Below, piece by piece: positions 1-7,544 of a DNA stretch of 64,000 nt (position 1 is its first letter; every line of letters begins with the position of its first letter). Under the pieces are notes generated by a model. That model was not told the DNA's origin and did no database searches. It saw nothing but the letters and a program-made list of their open reading frames with translations. The stretch lies in the NCBI GenBank assembly GCA_963719945.1, contig CAVRDX010000002.1, positions 48,529 through 112,528 on the forward strand, given 5' to 3'. The position numbers and the translations under genes are program-made. Source of the stretch: an uncultured Thermoplasmata archaeon (GTDB taxonomy: Archaea > Thermoplasmatota > Thermoplasmata > UBA10834).

Positions 1-1307
1 CGAACCATCCCACGAGGAAAGGAGTCATCACATTCCCGAGATCCATGGTCGAGGACGCCATTAGCAAGGTCACTCATCGCAACATGTATCCTGCTCGAGA
101 CAAGAGATGGGACATCGAGTTCGATGGCGAGCACATGTTCCCGTACGCAGGCGGAGGAGACCCGAAGATAATAGATCTGGGGACAGGCCAAGTGAGACAC
201 TCGACCTATAACGATATCGAGATGGCAGCCAAACTCGGCGACTCACTCGAGAACAACAACTTCGCATCCAGCCTGGTGATGGCGAATGATGTCCCGCCTG
301 AGCTGCTGGTCCTGAAGACCGTCGAGGCAGCTATGAAGAACACGGGAAAGGCGGTCACTGCATATGCCCCCGACAAGGAAACGGTCGATTACCTTGTGAA
401 GATGTGGGCATGCGTATCTGGAGGAACCGAGGAGCTCCGGAAGAGACCTCTGTTCAGCCTCGGCGGGTCCCCGAGCAGCCCGCTCACATACTCGGAGCAC
501 ACCTGCGATGTGTTGCTTCGAAGCGTCGAGCACGGTATCCCGTTCTCCGCCCTTCCCTGCCCTATCTGCGGGGAGACGGGACCTATGACTCTGGGCGGCG
601 CATTGGCGCAGCAGAATGCTGAACAACTAGGTGGCATCATGCTCATGCAGACGGTGACCACGAGCCTGCCCACATACTACTCCGGAAGGGTATGCGTCAT
701 GGATCCTCGTTCAGGAAGGGACCTTTGGGGGGTCCCTGAAGAAGCACTCTTGTCTGCGGCCATAGTACAAATCGCTCGCAGGTACGGGATGGTGGCAGAC
801 ACCAACGGTATGTCATCCGACATCACCAGATGGGACATGCAGATGGGGTTCGAACAGATGATGACCGGTCTGATACCGGCCCTGGCAGGTGCGGACAGCA
901 TATCCGGCCTCGGCAGCGGGTGGGCGAGTGCCAGCAGTCTCGAGATGATGGTCATAAACAACGAGGTCTTCAACGATATCGCGAGGATACTCAACGGCAT
1001 CCGTATCGACGAAGGGAGCCTTGCGATAGACCTGATAGATAAGGTTGGAACCATGGGCAGCTTCCTGGCAGAACCTCACACCATGGAGAGCATCCGCGAT
1101 GGAGAAGTACGCATCTCGTCGCTCTGGGACAAACGGAGTTCAGATAAAGTCACCAAGGAAGGCTTCAAGCCGATCCAGGAAACTGCAAGAGACGTTGTGC
1201 GGAGACGACTCGAGGACCACGAACCGGAGCCATTGGATAGGGATGTGGTGAACGGGATAGATCAAGTCATCAAAGAAGCTGCCAGAACATTTCTAGGGAG
1301 ATCGTAG
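1..1307 (+). CDS. Trimethylamine methyltransferase (MttB/PF06253) family protein, non-pyrrolysine, 5'-truncated by window edge
   Basis: Frame open from window start. Motifs SPSSPL, GETGPMTLGGALAQQNAEQL and SSDITRWDMQMGFEQ..LIPALAGAD; no in-frame TAG. Confidence 0.88.
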   Translation, partial: NHPTRKGVITFPRSMVEDAISKVTHRNMYPARDKRWDIEFDGEHMFPYAGGGDPKIIDLGTGQVRHSTYNDIEMAAKLGDSLENNNFASSLVMANDVPPELLVLKTVEAAMKNTGKAVTAYAPDKETVDYLVKMWACVSGGTEELRKRPLFSLGGSPSSPLTYSEHTCDVLLRSVEHGIPFSALPCPICGETGPMTLGGALAQQNAEQLGGIMLMQTVTTSLPTYYSGRVCVMDPRSGRDLWGVPEEALLSAAIVQIARRYGMVADTNGMSSDITRWDMQMGFEQMMTGLIPALAGADSISGLGSGWASASSLEMMVINNEVFNDIARILNGIRIDEGSLAIDLIDKVGTMGSFLAEPHTMESIRDGEVRISSLWDKRSSDKVTKEGFKPIQETARDVVRRRLEDHEPEPLDRDVVNGIDQVIKEAARTFLGRS

Positions 1308-1407: not shown

Positions 1408-1417
1408 AAGGTTATAA
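1408..1417 (+). promoter_or_regulatory. Probable TATA box of the Zn-ribbon/DUF2207/rSAM operon
   Basis: AAGGTTATAA about 40 nt upstream of ATG 1454. Confidence 0.45.
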
Positions 1418-1453: not shown

Positions 1454-1822
1454 ATGAACAAGCTAGTGGGGGCTTTGGTGACATTCGCCGGGATATGCCT
1501 GGTGATCCTCGGCGCTATTTTCATCATAGCGTGGAGCGTCGAGAATGCGATCGCTGGAGGCATGATGGTACTGATAGGCGTGGGCCTCATGTACTACATG
1601 TACAGGGTCGAGAAGATCGAGGCCGCAAAACCTCAACTCGTGTCTCAGACATTCAATGTCAAGATGTCTGGTTCAGGCGAGATGGCCCCGAAGGACATGA
1701 TATGCAAATCATGTGGCGCGCCGATCACCGAGAAGAACTTGAAGGTCATCCAGGGCGGACTCATGGCCACATGCCCGTACTGTGGCGCCGTGTTCGCGCT
1801 GCAGGAAGCTCCGAAGTGGTGA
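1454..1822 (+). CDS. Two-TM membrane protein with C-terminal zinc ribbon
   Basis: Two hydrophobic helices, then CKSCG...CPYCG. ATG 1454 preferred over GTG 1418 from TATA position. Confidence 0.8.
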   Translation: MNKLVGALVTFAGICLVILGAIFIIAWSVENAIAGGMMVLIGVGLMYYMYRVEKIEAAKPQLVSQTFNVKMSGSGEMAPKDMICKSCGAPITEKNLKVIQGGLMATCPYCGAVFALQEAPKW

Positions 1823-1838
1823 TATCATCATATCTACC

Positions 1839-3506
1839 ATGATCCGTCCCGCACTGATGTCATGTTCCATCGTCATGATACTCGTCCTTGCCATAGGCAT
1901 AAGCGCTTGTCCGTTCTCCAATTCGGCCGATGCAGCGGCGACATACAGCTTCAGTGTCGAGTATGAGCGCTTGGATGTCTTCGTGCTCAAGGACGGGAGT
2001 ATCGACATAGACTACTCATTCGGAATGACGAACTTCGGATATCTTGATGGAGTCGACATAGGCCTGCCCAACAAGTACTATGACCTAGACTCGGCCGAAG
2101 CCACGATCATTGTGAACGATCAGGAGTACGCTCCCGCTCTGATACACAAATCACCTTACGTGGAAATCGGAGTGGCCGTCGAGTTCACGAGCACAGTGAT
2201 GGCGTTGATCGACACATATGGCACATCATTCCAGCTGGATTTCCATATCAACAACCCGCATATGGTGTACGAGAACGAGCTCGTGGAAGGCACTGTCGGC
2301 ATAGCAATGAGACCGACCTGGTTCGGCGACGCGTATCAGGTGGGTCCGACCGAGGAGCTCACTGCGAGGGTGTTCTTCCCCGATGGATTCGTGAACGTCA
2401 CCGATGCCGTCTACCTCGAAGGGCAACCATGGAACGAGATAGGGATCGACCCCGGGACAGGGCTATTGGTCGCCACATGGACCGCGTCGAATGCCTATCC
2501 CGCGGGCATCGCGTCTGGCGAATTCGATTTCGGCGCGGGGTTCCCTGCAGAGTTCGTGGACAGTTATGTGCGCCATACGGTCTGGAACTCGATCGCGGAC
2601 TTCTTCGCCTCACTCTTGGAACTGGTCTGCCTCTGCATACCCATCATAGCCCTTGGGGGATTCATATTCCTCATATACATGATTGACAGGGCCAGCAAGG
2701 CCGCGAAGAGGAAGGATTACTTCAATCCGGCCATGGGAGTCGTCGGCTCGGGCCCACGGAGGGACCTCACCGCAGTAGAAGCTGCAATCGTACTCGAGAG
2801 ACCTCTCGAGATGGTGGCGACCATGATACTCTTCGGATTGGTGAAGAAGGGTATGGTGAGGATAGACTCGGATCAGAGACCGATGAAGCTGACGAAACTA
2901 GGAGCCGAGGGGGAACACACCTACGAGACCGACTACCTCAGGGGGATCGGTCCCGATGGTCAGCTGGATCGCACACAGCTGGAGGTGACCCTTGTCGACC
3001 TGATAAAGAGGACCGAGACGAAGCTCGATGGCTTCAACTATAGACACACCAAGAATTACTATCAGGAGATATGCTCCGCCGCGTGGAAACAGGTCAAGGA
3101 TGCTGGAACCCCCGAGGAGTTCGCATCGGTCCTTTCCGACAAGCACGAGTGGATGATGCTCGACAATCACTACGAGACGCAGATGCGACACTATTTCTTC
3201 GCCATGCCATACGTCTACGTGCCCATGACGCACTCCGTTTACGAACACACTATGCCGACAGCACAAGTGTCTCCCCAGCAGCTTGCATCCAACTACGCTA
3301 CGAGCGTCAAGAACGCGAGCAACAACGTTGTCTCGAATTTCAAGTCTCTGGCATATGATATAGCTGGAAAGACGAACCCCGTGACGACGTCCACGGGTTC
3401 GGGTTCTGGTTCGTACCTCAAAGGTGGCGGCGGATTCGGTGGATTCGGAGGAGGATGCGCGTGTGCATGTGCATGCGCATGTGCCTGCGCTGGGGGTGGA
3501 AGATGA
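1839..3506 (+). CDS. DUF2207-like membrane protein with Gly-rich linker and C-terminal (Cys-Ala)6-GGGR tail
   Basis: Signal peptide, DUF2207-like N-terminus (ERLDVFVLKDGSIDIDYSF), one TM helix, cytoplasmic domain (LTAVEAAIVL..LVKKG), tail GGGGFGGFGGGCACACACACACAGGGR. Confidence 0.8.
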   Translation: MIRPALMSCSIVMILVLAIGISACPFSNSADAAATYSFSVEYERLDVFVLKDGSIDIDYSFGMTNFGYLDGVDIGLPNKYYDLDSAEATIIVNDQEYAPALIHKSPYVEIGVAVEFTSTVMALIDTYGTSFQLDFHINNPHMVYENELVEGTVGIAMRPTWFGDAYQVGPTEELTARVFFPDGFVNVTDAVYLEGQPWNEIGIDPGTGLLVATWTASNAYPAGIASGEFDFGAGFPAEFVDSYVRHTVWNSIADFFASLLELVCLCIPIIALGGFIFLIYMIDRASKAAKRKDYFNPAMGVVGSGPRRDLTAVEAAIVLERPLEMVATMILFGLVKKGMVRIDSDQRPMKLTKLGAEGEHTYETDYLRGIGPDGQLDRTQLEVTLVDLIKRTETKLDGFNYRHTKNYYQEICSAAWKQVKDAGTPEEFASVLSDKHEWMMLDNHYETQMRHYFFAMPYVYVPMTHSVYEHTMPTAQVSPQQLASNYATSVKNASNNVVSNFKSLAYDIAGKTNPVTTSTGSGSGSYLKGGGGFGGFGGGCACACACACACAGGGR

Positions 3507-4855
3507 TGCCATTCAGACTCCTTGCCTATTCACCTGAAGAACTAGGCCTCAAGCCCGGCACGTACAAGTACGACGGACCTGGCGACCTCGCTCGTCACCG
3601 ATTCCATATCAGGGTGGACAGTCAGACGAAGGGCGTGCTGATGGTGGACGCGTCGAAGCTGATCTTCCTGAACGGTACTGCTCTCGACTACGTGAGATGC
3701 ATACTCGAGGGGAAGGACGCGGACCGAACATATGCCTACATGAAACGTAGATACAAGGGTCTCAAGAAGGCCGCCGCCAGGGAAGACTATAGGTCCACCA
3801 GGGAGAGGCTTACTCGATTCGTCAAGGGCGAAGAGTCAGTCATGGACGTCATGGGACCCAACGCACCCGCAATCGGTGCGGATGAGATGCCATCGCCATA
3901 CAGGATGGACCTTGCGCTCACATACCGATGCCAGAACGACTGCGGACACTGCTACAACGCAACCAAGGAGAAGAAGGAGCTTTCGGTGAAGGAGTGGATC
4001 ACCATCATAGACAAGCTCTGGGACGCAGGCATACCGCACATAGTATTCACCGGGGGAGAGCCGACCCTGTACGACGGCCTAGATGAGCTGATAGCTCATT
4101 CTGAACTCCACGGACAGATCACAGGACTCATCTCGAACGGCCGGAGCCTCGGAAAGCCGGGCTACCTGAGTTCTCTCGTGTCCAAGGGGTTGGACCATGT
4201 CCAGATCACGGTGCTCTCGCACGAGCGAGAGACACACGATCGATTGGCAGGTGCCAAGGGCGCGTGGCAGGAGACGATCGCGGGATTGAAGGCTGCGATC
4301 GCCGAGGACATGTATGTCAGCACCAACACGACAATCATGAGATCCAATTACGCGCACGTCAAGGAGACCATGAGGTTCCTCGTCGGCCTCGGTGTGAAGA
4401 ATATCGCGTTCAACAGCATCATACGGTCCGGAAAGGGCGTGCAGGCAGAAGGCGTGACATATCAAGAATTATCATCGCTTCTGGAGGAACTCAGAGGTAT
4501 AGCCTCTGAGACGGGGACGAAACTGATATGGTATTCTCCCACACCGTACTGCGAACTCAATCCGGTGAACATGGGCCTGGGCATCAAGCAATGCACCGCC
4601 TGTTCACTGAACATGGCGGTCGAGCCCGACGGGACTGTGCTACCATGCCAGAGCTATTACGAACCTCTCGGGGACATGCTCAAGGATGATTGGTCCACCA
4701 TATGGGGACATCCGCAATGCGAGCGCATCAGGAAGAGGGAGTATGTCGACGAGAAGTGCGGGAAGTGCGAGATGCTTCAGCTGTGCGGAGGCGGATGCCC
4801 GCTTTCTGCGGCTCACGGAGACTATGTGTGCCAGGACAGATACTCATCTATGTGA
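3503..4855 (+). CDS. Radical SAM/SPASM-domain protein with PqqD/RRE-like N-terminal domain
   Basis: CQNDCGHC (CxxxCxxC, 3929-3952), FTGGEP, SPASM motifs CTAC..DGTVLPC and CGKCEMLQLCGGGCP..YVC. ATGA overlap with upstream stop. Confidence 0.93.
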   Translation: MMPFRLLAYSPEELGLKPGTYKYDGPGDLARHRFHIRVDSQTKGVLMVDASKLIFLNGTALDYVRCILEGKDADRTYAYMKRRYKGLKKAAAREDYRSTRERLTRFVKGEESVMDVMGPNAPAIGADEMPSPYRMDLALTYRCQNDCGHCYNATKEKKELSVKEWITIIDKLWDAGIPHIVFTGGEPTLYDGLDELIAHSELHGQITGLISNGRSLGKPGYLSSLVSKGLDHVQITVLSHERETHDRLAGAKGAWQETIAGLKAAIAEDMYVSTNTTIMRSNYAHVKETMRFLVGLGVKNIAFNSIIRSGKGVQAEGVTYQELSSLLEELRGIASETGTKLIWYSPTPYCELNPVNMGLGIKQCTACSLNMAVEPDGTVLPCQSYYEPLGDMLKDDWSTIWGHPQCERIRKREYVDEKCGKCEMLQLCGGGCPLSAAHGDYVCQDRYSSM

Positions 4856-5605
4856 GTCGGGTTTCTTGGCGAACGCATGGAACACGGGGTTGAACTGGAA
4901 CAAAGAGCCATCTTTTAGCGCGCGTTCCCAGATGGGCCGCAGCTCTGCAAGCCGTTCCTTGCCCTCAACGTTCTGAGCAGTCAGTTCCAGGTACCTCCAT
5001 TCGGCCTCTGACTCTGCCCTCAGCTTGTCGATCCCCCATACACCTGGATGTACTCCGACCTCTGCTTCGAGGTGGCACGCTTCGAAGATGGCCCTCAACT
5101 TCCGACCGATCAGAGGATCGCCTCCTTCGGCCCTTATGCCGTCTTCAGCTATCCTGCCAAGTGGGGAGAGCTCCTGAGGGAAGTCGATCCGAGCGCCAAG
5201 GTCCGGCTCCGCAAGACACACGACCCAATGCCTGGAAATGCGAACCATCTCCGACAGAACCCTCACGGGATCGTCGACCCACAGCATAACGAAAGAGCAA
5301 TAGGCCATATCGAAGGAGTCATCCTTGAAAGGCAGCGAGTGCGCATCCCCTTCTCTCACCTCTAGACCCCTGCGTCTGCCCTCGGCAACGGCTGCTGGGT
5401 CGATGTCTATTCCCTGCACATCGAACATCGGAGCTAGCAATTCCATTACGAATCCTGGCCCGCATCCGACATCCAGAGCGGTCGGTCGCCTTTGCCCATT
5501 CCAATTGCTCAGCACCCGCTGCTCAAGTAGCCAGGTCCATGAATCCCTGAGCCAGAGTGATTGCCTCGAGAGCTGTCTATCCATATCCTTCGCAGACCAG
5601 GGCAT
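4844..5605 (-). CDS. Class I SAM-dependent methyltransferase
   Basis: ALDVGCGPG, GIDID, GDAHSLPFKDDSFD motifs. Start approximate. Confidence 0.88.
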   Translation of the reverse strand: MPWSAKDMDRQLSRQSLWLRDSWTWLLEQRVLSNWNGQRRPTALDVGCGPGFVMELLAPMFDVQGIDIDPAAVAEGRRRGLEVREGDAHSLPFKDDSFDMAYCSFVMLWVDDPVRVLSEMVRISRHWVVCLAEPDLGARIDFPQELSPLGRIAEDGIRAEGGDPLIGRKLRAIFEACHLEAEVGVHPGVWGIDKLRAESEAEWRYLELTAQNVEGKERLAELRPIWERALKDGSLFQFNPVFHAFAKKPDSHR

Positions 5606-5763
5606 CGAACATGAAGAGGCGTCCATGAGAGAAATCCTTTGTGGCAATCCTGGCCTATCGAACCGGTCCATCTTATGATGGGAGACATCCATCTTGGTAG
5701 ATGCAGAAGACCTGTCCGTGACAAAATCCATAACGATGGATAGGCATGCGAAAGCTGAGAGGA

Positions 5764-5967
5764 ATGACGATGAAGTGCAATAACTGCGGCTCAGAGAACC
5801 CTGAGGACCATAAATTCTGCGGCGACTGCGGCAAAGAACTGCCGGTAGCCTCTGTGGCCGATGATGATAATTCTATGAGAAAATGTAGTTCTTGTGGCCG
5901 CACTCTGACCGAGGAGACCAATGTCTGCCCATACTGCGGACGATGGGTGAAACGGTCCATGTTCTAG
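5764..5967 (+). CDS. Small double zinc-ribbon protein
   Basis: CNNCG..FCGDCG and CSSCG..CPYCG. Confidence 0.8.
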   Translation: MTMKCNNCGSENPEDHKFCGDCGKELPVASVADDDNSMRKCSSCGRTLTEETNVCPYCGRWVKRSMF

Positions 5968-6178: not shown

Positions 6179-7300
6179 TCAGGCTGCGACCTCGATCGTG
6201 CACGATGATATCCCACCGATCAGATCCTCGTAGTCGTAGGCGGGATAGTCCTTCCAGACATCCAATGATCCCGAGACCAGGCCACTTGCAGTAATATCTA
6301 AACTGTAAGTCCCTTCATTCTTGCAGGCGCAGACTTCCCAAGTGAGCAGGACGGTATCGCCTGCGCTGAATGTCTCGAGGTCTGTCAGGTCAGGTGCCTT
6401 GCACACCTTGAGTCCGGATGATGCCTCCATGACCGCGCTGAAGCTCTCGGCAGGGAATGTCGGGAACTTATCCGATCCGAATGGTGCGAGGCACGGGTAT
6501 GTAATCTCCGCCGTCACCTTGAACTTCTCACCTGGCAGGACGATCGATGGAGCTGTGATGTCTATCTCCCATGGCGTGACGAACACTCCGCCGTACATCA
6601 TGCCCGGAACGTTCCATCTCGTCGTATCGCAAGTCCAAGTATCCAAGAAGTCCGCATATTTCCACTTGATCGGCTCGAACTCAGAGTCCCATGCATTCGG
6701 GTTCGCGCTCTGCGAGGTCGAGCCCTGATAATCGTGGTCGTTCTTGAACTCCCTCGACCAGCCGTCATTGATCAGCAGGACCCCTTCGGAGTCATCGTAG
6801 CCCACGACGACACGGTAGTGGTCCCCTGAGTACCATTCTGGAAGCCAATATACGAGCACGATCACGGGATACCCTTGGTCGAGTATCTCCTTCATCTCAT
6901 TCAGCCAGGGCTCATCGGATGCATAGTAGAATCCCGCGTATCCCATGTCCCTGGCGGTATAGCCAGTTACGACAGAGTTCGGCCATCTCGCGCCCATGGT
7001 CGGGCTCATCGAGCTGAACTGAGCCGCTCGTGCCATATCCGGAAGTGCAGTACCTCCGCTCCTAGCCGCATTGTATATCTCTCTCTGATCCACGAACTCG
7101 CCGTAGTAGTCAAACACCATCTGCAACGATACTGCGCCGCAGCCCTTCGCGTCTATCTGTTGATAGAGCGGGACACCGTCGATGAATGCGCTCCCAGACA
7201 GGGCTTGAGTTCCTGAGACGGGAAGCACCATCATAGCCACGATGCAGACACACACGCTCGAGATAAGAAATCGTATACGCCCAACCAGACTCGTCCTCAT
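6179..7300 (-). CDS. Secreted C39-like (papain-fold) cysteine peptidase with C-terminal beta-rich domain
   Basis: Signal peptide, VPLYQQ..GCGAVSLQMV..YYG (Cys), GDHYRVVVGYD (His), IND. Confidence 0.82.
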   Translation of the reverse strand: MRTSLVGRIRFLISSVCVCIVAMMVLPVSGTQALSGSAFIDGVPLYQQIDAKGCGAVSLQMVFDYYGEFVDQREIYNAARSGGTALPDMARAAQFSSMSPTMGARWPNSVVTGYTARDMGYAGFYYASDEPWLNEMKEILDQGYPVIVLVYWLPEWYSGDHYRVVVGYDDSEGVLLINDGWSREFKNDHDYQGSTSQSANPNAWDSEFEPIKWKYADFLDTWTCDTTRWNVPGMMYGGVFVTPWEIDITAPSIVLPGEKFKVTAEITYPCLAPFGSDKFPTFPAESFSAVMEASSGLKVCKAPDLTDLETFSAGDTVLLTWEVCACKNEGTYSLDITASGLVSGSLDVWKDYPAYDYEDLIGGISSCTIEVAA

Positions 7301-7544
7301 GCCTTCTCTCCCCCACTGAGCCGGACCCAAGGAATGCCGCTCAGCTTGGGGAGAATCAGACTATCGATTAATAACAGATTTGATACAGCGATAGAAATGT
7401 CGGCTTGAACGAACTGGAGACTTTTCCAGGGCCATGATTATTCGATTGATACGAACATCGAGAGAAGGCATTAAACCCTTCAAAACGATTCGTACCCAGC
7501 GGCCCTGATTCCAATCAGGGCCGATCGAGAGGAAGTGGGTCAAC

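Follow-up and report, generated by a model that had tools for sequence, protein, structure and literature searches.

Enzymes that combine a radical S-adenosylmethionine (SAM) domain with a SPASM domain are known mainly for small modified peptides, with few cases in which a whole protein is the substrate (QhpD, anSME and, in 2026, CrpC). We analyzed a 64,000-nucleotide stretch of DNA from an uncultured Thermoplasmata archaeon (contig CAVRDX010000002.1, positions 48,529 to 112,528; hereafter the window) in which the gene for a membrane protein of about 555 residues, here called the carrier, ends by encoding a (Cys-Ala)6-Gly-Gly-Gly-Arg tail and is followed immediately by the gene for a radical SAM/SPASM enzyme with an N-terminal domain like the recognition element (RRE) of peptides synthesized by ribosomes and then modified post-translationally (RiPPs). 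The tail belongs to a radical SAM system that is undescribed and widespread: no Pfam or NCBIfam model covers the system, and a literature search found no paper on the Cys-Ala tail or on the system itself. All coordinates are positions in the window, and carrier residue numbers count from GTG 1782, so that residue 20 is the Met at 1839.

Among the enzymes that act on proteins, the radical SAM-SPASM enzyme CrpC of Methanococcus voltae installs thioether crosslinks on the Cys-rich protein CrpA (PMC13692751, 2026). As in the window, an archaeal RRE-radical SAM-SPASM enzyme is found beside a protein with repeated Cys motifs in its C-terminal part, and the substrate is a protein and not a short peptide. 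CrpA differs in being soluble and in having ten copies of a 17-residue motif with C-X-X-Q/D sites, whereas the carrier, the candidate substrate here, is an integral membrane protein with one short terminal Cys-Ala run and no acidic or amide acceptor. CrpC is placed in TIGR04463, which was not among the best 25 of the 62 NCBIfam families matched by the window's enzyme (gene 3; P0002), and the comparison with CrpC was made by description. In the gamma subunit of quinohemoprotein amine dehydrogenase, QhpC, three intra-protein crosslinks are formed by the radical SAM enzyme QhpD (PMC7876137). Here too the substrate continues to serve as a protein, and its crosslinks help to build a protein-derived cofactor. 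The QhpC subunit is small, soluble and later periplasmic, has Cys-to-Asp/Glu links and differs from the window's protein in having neither a Cys-Ala repeat nor a membrane carrier.

Of the enzymes with peptide substrates, StsB of Streptomyces sparsogenes crosslinks the C-x-C-x-C core of StsA to Gly alpha-carbons (PMC10288494). The parallel lies in a radical SAM-SPASM enzyme and a CxC core, the carrier tail being a Cys-x-Cys run with Gly runs on both sides; the difference is that StsA is a short peptide served by a discrete RRE protein, StsC, and that gene 3 scores 74 bits against an StsB cut-off of 625. SkfB, CteB (the maturase of six-cysteines-in-forty-five peptides, SCIFF) and SuiB give the best matches to gene 3 in both sequence and fold, along the entire chain and with the RRE included, but are only 13–21% identical to it and work on small leader-bearing peptides. 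Because SuiB makes a Lys-Trp bond, fold likeness does not fix the chemistry of gene 3.

The closest described idea concerns TIGR04222 membrane proteins with Gly/Ser/Cys-rich C-terminal tails, which have been proposed as substrates of oxidative enzymes that depend on multinuclear non-heme iron (MNIO enzymes; PMC12452194): there, as here, a membrane protein has an unstructured Cys-bearing C-terminal tail that a neighboring enzyme is proposed to modify. The TIGR04222 tails have an MNIO partner and are irregular, variable and predicted to be periplasmic, whereas the carrier tail has a radical SAM partner, is invariant and is predicted to be cytoplasmic. The carrier scores 17.9 bits against the TIGR04222 cut-off of 43 (E 0.0018, residues 313–416), and a bacterial homologue gave no match to that family. 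DUF2207 (PF09972/PF20990) has a similar architecture of outer beta domain, transmembrane segment and cytoplasmic part, and DUF2207 clusters were among the nearest named neighbors in a protein-language-model search (scores 0.94–0.97). We take this as a lead and not as membership, as the carrier has no Pfam match to PF09972 and the similarity comes from the language-model search alone.

The open reading frame at 1782–3506 (plus strand) has the C-terminus KGGGGFGGFGGG-(CA)6-GGGR-stop. A first-pass annotation of the sequence had held that this tail appears to be selected at the protein level and is not a DNA microsatellite, citing the codons TGC GCG TGT GCA TGT GCA TGC GCA TGT GCC TGC GCT; these are exactly the codons at 3456–3491, with both Cys codons and all four Ala codons in use. 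Comparison of 11 related genomes of the same family, whose carriers are 37–84% identical, bears the proposal out. The tail is (CA)6GGGR in every one of them yet is encoded by 11 distinct DNA versions, in which all 16 codons vary synonymously (2–4 forms each) without a single amino-acid change; mean identity is 0.46 at third positions versus 0.994 at first and second positions. Since the codon variation is wholly synonymous, the tail peptide is under purifying selection. The CACACA coding pattern occurs at a single site in the 1.78-Mb genome (0 matches for the reversed control), and the tail scores 39–45 in Tandem Repeats Finder against a default threshold of 50, making it an imperfect hexamer and no clean microsatellite. 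Directly before the core, GGGGFGGFGGG is encoded at 3423–3455. The suggestion that this Gly-rich spacer could isolate the tail agrees with its behavior as a linker, which differs in sequence and length among homologues while the core after it is fixed, and with the disorder that AlphaFold2 assigns to residues 538–574.

The tail is also conserved well beyond these relatives. A word-seeded search returned more than 100 homologues, nearly all of them tailed; because tail words might have biased that search, it was redone with residues 1–535 only, by an exhaustive HMMER search of 1.84 billion representatives that gave 509 hits. Among the best 150 of these, CACACAGGGR is the ending of 101 and a different Cys-Ala/Val repeat that of 13; short fragments or frameshifted gene calls make up most of the other 36. 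When both searches are pooled, 203 of the 204 homologues of at least 505 residues end in a Cys-Ala/Val repeat, nearly always ...CACACAGGGR; the tail is thus neither absent nor highly variable in close homologues, whereas its absence or high variability there is what the first-pass annotation had named as refuting a selected tail. Aligning the tails for Cys number and terminal GGGR, as it had also suggested, gave a near-invariant ending and a Cys count that is not fixed, ranging from 3 to 10 per tail; the main forms are (CA)5GGGR, (CA)4-G-(CA)3-GGGR and (CA)2-3-G-(CA)4-GGGR. Two metagenome gene calls, P0214 and P0220, have Leu/Arg/Cys-rich ends (e.g., CLCLCRLRLCL) that correspond to the Cys-Ala region in a shifted frame, probably through sequencing or calling errors in a GC-rich repeat.

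A DNA pattern scan for CACACAGGGR-stop, with one genome per species, found at least 118 loci. Among the matches listed, archaea are represented by Methanomassiliicoccales and other Thermoplasmatota and by Heimdall- and Hodarchaeota, and bacteria by Anaerolineae and other Chloroflexota, Planctomycetota, Acidobacteriota, Aminicenantes, Sabulitectum, Hydrogenedentes and others, including the cultured bacterium Ornatilinea apprima. Wherever a comparison could be made, the open reading frame carrying the tail was a homologue of the window's protein, and no unrelated carrier was found among these matches.

The carrier gene is the second of a four-gene cassette (Table 1), and it adjoins the radical SAM gene in most loci. 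The TGA of gene 2 overlaps the ATG of gene 3 as ATGA (3503–3506), and an ATGA or TGATG overlap of the two genes is retained in most close relatives. Genes 1 and 2 are 16 nucleotides apart and gene 4 is convergent with gene 3, the 3' ends overlapping by 12 nucleotides; this spacing leaves no room for a separate small precursor gene, and none is present among the open reading frames of the cassette. In archaeal relatives the order of zinc-ribbon protein, carrier, radical SAM enzyme and convergent methyltransferase is kept wherever the contig permits. A gene 1 homologue lies directly 5' of the carrier gene in archaeal relatives (40–96% identity) and in most bacterial loci (~30%), and the methyltransferase adjoins the radical SAM gene in all eight archaeal loci with sufficient flank. 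Bacterial loci have these same first three genes, and in many of them a Cys-less enzyme paralogue and a methyltransferase gene in the same direction are present as well. Of the 118 listed loci, 79 have the radical SAM gene as the next gene downstream, on the strand of the carrier; it is located upstream in 7 and at another place in the locus in 4, and 10 have insufficient flank. Seven loci (L040, L072, L078, L083, L087, L118 and L126) have the order zinc-ribbon protein, radical SAM enzyme, carrier, methyltransferase, and the tails of these reordered loci, which come from Planctomycetota, Hydrogenedentes and others, are of the (CA)2-3-G-(CA)4-GGGR type. Co-occurrence by genome is strict: the carrier is present in 12 of 41 relatives, a radical SAM orthologue in 11 of these 12 (with a contig-end fragment in the twelfth) and in none of the 29 relatives without a carrier. 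Since the relatives share ancestry, these counts are descriptive and do not amount to a statistical test.

The enzyme encoded by gene 3 has 450 residues and matches Pfam Radical_SAM (1e-21) and SPASM (1.7e-8). The CxxxCxxC motif expected for the SAM-binding 4Fe-4S cluster is present (C143, C147 and C150; 3929–3952) and invariant in 40 homologues, as is the GGE motif. The SPASM cysteines (residues 350–443; 4550–4831) are those expected for two auxiliary clusters, CX2CX5CX3C included, with C364, C382, C419, C422, C428 and C432 invariant and C350 near-invariant in the same alignment. AlphaFold2 modeled the enzyme with a mean predicted local distance difference test score (pLDDT) of 87.3 and a predicted template modeling (TM) score of 0.87. 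Its N-terminal part, residues 19–107 (3557–3823), has strands at 19–57 followed by three helices at 58–107, the beta3-alpha3 arrangement of a PqqD-like winged-helix RRE; the assignment comes from the AlphaFold2 model and from whole-chain Foldseek alignments to SkfB, SuiB and CteB, which are the best full-length matches (E 1e-17, TM scores 0.60–0.69), while Pfam PqqD gave only a weak match, to a bacterial orthologue. Among solved structures SkfB is the nearest in sequence (1.4e-18, with the alignment starting at residue 41), and PqqE is next. The bacterial cassettes L015 (9096–10262) and L016 (9907–11310) contain a second paralogue with an RRE-like N-terminus in which LTYQLREQAQPNQ replaces the CxxxCxxC cysteines and which has no SPASM match; it therefore looks like a pseudo-enzyme. 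A search of this archaeal genome for the second paralogue matched only gene 3 itself.

Met 20 of the carrier is invariant in an alignment of 41 homologues, which makes ATG 1839 the probable start of translation. As modeled by AlphaFold2 (mean pLDDT 81.5), the carrier has an N-terminal hydrophobic signal or anchor helix at residues 23–42, a beta-sandwich, a long membrane helix and a second folded domain ahead of the disordered tail. The membrane helix is followed by RASKAAKRKD, a segment whose net charge of +4 assigns the C-terminal half, tail included, to the cytoplasm. In the cytoplasmic domain R327, L329, T330, E333, A334 and T531 are invariant and P533 is near-invariant, and a conserved TNP motif at the end of the domain (3372–3380), about 25 residues ahead of the first Cys, is a candidate recognition element. 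No Pfam family matches the carrier at E 0.01 or better. Foldseek against the PDB returned only generic beta-sandwiches (the N-terminal domain of M1 aminopeptidase, ribophorin I) at TM scores of ~0.25, and we dropped the fold as a functional lead. The N-terminal hydrophobic segment (1848–1913, residues 23–44) ends in a lipobox-like ...GISAC, and to judge from this sequence the carrier might be lipid-anchored after signal cleavage.

Table 1. Features of the Cys-Ala cassette, in window coordinates.
Feature	Position	Strand	Basis or remark
TTATAA, TATA-like box, candidate cassette promoter	1412..1417	+	~37 nucleotides 5' of ATG 1454; sequence reading only
Gene 1, small membrane protein with C-terminal CxxC...CxxC zinc ribbon	1454..1822	+	Open reading frame; alternative start GTG 1418
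Gene 2, carrier membrane protein with Cys-Ala tail	1839..3506	+	Open reading frame opens at GTG 1782; aligned invariant Met at 1839
Extracytoplasmic beta-sandwich, residues 57–255	1950..2546	+	pLDDT mostly >90
Long transmembrane helix, residues 267–314	2580..2723	+	Hydropathy, flank charges, model helix
Cytoplasmic domain, residues 320–535	2739..3386	+	Winged-helix-like unit 331–372 and helical bundle 380–531 (AlphaFold2)
Gly/Ser-rich linker	3384..3455	+	Sequence and length differ among homologues; pLDDT <50
(Cys-Ala)6 core	3456..3491	+	(CA)6 in all 11 same-family relatives
GGGR and stop TGA	3492..3506	+	GGG GGT GGA AGA at 3492–3503, TGA at 3504–3506; G572, G573 and R574 invariant
Gene 3, radical SAM/SPASM enzyme with N-terminal RRE-like domain	3503..4855	+	Pfam, AlphaFold2, Foldseek
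Gene 4, class I SAM-dependent methyltransferase	4844..5731	-	Pfam Methyltransf_11 1e-19

The other cassette genes and their neighbors can be described more briefly. Gene 1 encodes two hydrophobic helices by hydropathy, and its zinc-ribbon Pfam matches are sub-threshold; all NCBIfam matches of the gene 4 methyltransferase are far under their cut-offs. A 73-residue double zinc ribbon protein lies at 5746–5967 (plus strand; Pfam DZR 3.8e-13), and because its gene begins just 14 nucleotides from the divergent annotated start of the methyltransferase, the latter probably starts at an internal Met. Upstream of the cassette, at 3–1307 (plus strand), is a homologue of the MttB methyltransferase family (Pfam MTTB 9.5e-60), which is also found 5' of the cassette in the closest relative (L002). 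It has 434 residues without an in-frame stop and scores 329 bits against the cut-off of 525 for the pyrrolysine trimethylamine enzyme, and so looks like a non-pyrrolysine member of the MttB superfamily. On the minus strand at 6182–7330 is a Peptidase_C39_2-like protein with an N-terminal hydrophobic segment, which makes a location outside the cell likely; its homologue in relative G016 is interrupted by in-frame TGA codons.

From the anatomy, conservation, linkage and co-occurrence of the tail we infer that it is probably the in-cis cytoplasmic substrate of the RRE-radical SAM-SPASM enzyme, most plausibly through thioether chemistry on Cys. In such a scheme the flexible Gly-rich linker would present (Cys-Ala)6-GGGR in the cytoplasm as the 'core peptide' that a full-size membrane protein carries within itself. 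The translationally coupled, cytoplasmic enzyme would dock on the C-terminal region of the carrier and modify the tail cysteines, probably forming thioether crosslinks. A further modification may come from the methyltransferase, and the zinc-ribbon membrane protein is a possible partner. A thioether is the likeliest product because the nearest characterized enzymes make such bonds, StsB crosslinks a CxCxC core to Gly, and protein substrates have precedent. The first-pass annotation had offered crosslinking, metal or Fe-S binding and redox sensing as possible uses of the thiols; crosslinking fits the context best, given that a translationally coupled RRE-radical SAM-SPASM enzyme follows. The invariance of the tail core makes a diversifying antibiotic less likely than a fixed product such as a metal site, a redox site or a rigid structure. 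It is possible, if doubtful, that the radical SAM enzyme and the methyltransferase together turn the tail into a crosslinked or metal-binding cofactor that stays tethered to a receptor-like membrane protein on its cytoplasmic side.

Several observations weigh against modification of the tail by the enzyme. The radical SAM gene was not seen within the stretch examined in 18 of the 118 listed loci, although five of these 18 genomes were searched whole and each had exactly one strong orthologue (528–672 bits). In one metagenomic lineage (L017 and L018, 7650–12659) the tail gene is followed not by the radical SAM gene but by convergent hypE, hypD and hypF, which may be coincidence or may hint at a link to metal. 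The reaction is not readable from homology, because the enzyme is far under every curated NCBIfam cut-off, those of SbtM and MftC included: besides StsB, it scores 118 bits against 381 for PqqE, its best match, 88 against 300 for SkfB and 64 against 400 for ACGX. For every member of the family alike, the modification chemistry is one that we infer. The tail has none of the Asp, Glu, Asn or Thr acceptors of the type used by known ranthipeptide enzymes, and RiPP cores are usually variable and their leaders conserved, whereas here the core is invariant. Complex prediction gave a weak pass. The enzyme with carrier residues 495–574, three 4Fe-4S clusters and SAM scored 0.40, against 0.02 for the best of three controls (contact agreement between runs at least 33%, partner pLDDT at least 33). 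Of 80 solved complexes 58 attain this mark, as do 2 of 110 mismatched pairs, and those that attain it at 0.60 or under comprise only 7 of the 80 solved complexes together with both passing mismatches. The modeled interface raises the odds only slightly. Finally, the tail could work unmodified, because Cys-X-Cys repeats are classic metal-thiolate sites, as in metallothioneins.

This last point can be developed into an explanation of its own, in which the tail stays unmodified and binds metal or Fe-S as a Cys-X-Cys array resembling a metallothionein, on the cytoplasmic side of the membrane, and the radical SAM gene is linked to it for another reason; the tail could, for instance, be a donor of iron, sulfur or electrons for the enzyme, or the substrate of the enzyme could be a different molecule. 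Alternating Cys and small residues would suit clustered thiolate ligation, an invariant core is unlike typical RiPP cores, two adjacent genes of the cassette encode Cys metal motifs (zinc ribbon and SPASM), and one locus adjoins the metal-center maturation genes hypE, hypD and hypF. An unmodified metal site leaves unexplained, however, why Ala is strict where any small residue should do and why the tail ends in GGGR. Nor does it account for an enzyme that has an RRE-type peptide-recognition domain, resembles peptide maturases over its full length and co-occurs strictly with the carrier, both by genome and by gene order. On balance we regard it as unlikely.

It is more improbable still that the tail is a true RiPP precursor, in which modification is followed by a cut after the Gly-rich stretch and by release or export of a small peptide. 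The layout of conserved region, Gly-rich stretch and Cys-rich C-terminal core does resemble a leader and core, GG is a known leader cleavage motif of C39 peptidases, and the window encodes the Peptidase_C39_2 protein at a distance of 2.7 kb. The first-pass annotation had raised the GG before the core as a possible cleavage site. That suggestion does not hold up: the conserved cassette, in archaeal and bacterial loci alike, has no peptidase or transporter, and homologues of the window's sole C39-like peptidase are on other contigs, or were not found, in the relatives that keep the cassette, so we rejected cleavage by this enzyme. The C39-like protein is moreover likely extracellular and the tail cytoplasmic, and a two-domain membrane protein of ~550 residues that is conserved over its full length is an implausible disposable leader. 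A RiPP precursor is short, with a removable leader and a protease or exporter in its cluster; the carrier is not of this kind. A DNA-level microsatellite, (TGYGCN)n, without a function of its own would suit the 3–10 Cys by which lineages differ and the weak hexamer periodicity, but we reject it as having practically no credence, because the repeat units differ at third positions, each codon varies synonymously with zero residue changes, the genome has no second copy of the motif, Tandem Repeats Finder scores the repeat under the default of the tool and the tail is kept across two domains of life in proteins otherwise just 25–30% identical.

Modification of the tail by the neighboring enzyme therefore remains the reading we prefer, and an effect of the enzyme on the tail is directly testable: the tail is short, tryptic and easily followed by mass spectrometry, and the cassette is present in at least one cultured bacterium, Ornatilinea apprima. 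That a full-size membrane protein has its own 'core peptide', with the same letters retained in two domains of life, suggests a housekeeping-type modified site, be it metal, redox or structural. Such a site would concern many uncultured anaerobes, Asgard archaea and relatives of methanogens included. Should the tail indeed mature into a tethered cofactor, it would be an in-cis, protein-derived prosthetic group of an undescribed kind, made by a unit conserved in anaerobes from Chloroflexota and Planctomycetota to Thermoplasmatota and Asgard archaea, and its Cys/Ala/Gly chemistry may be unlike the known sactionine and ranthionine links.

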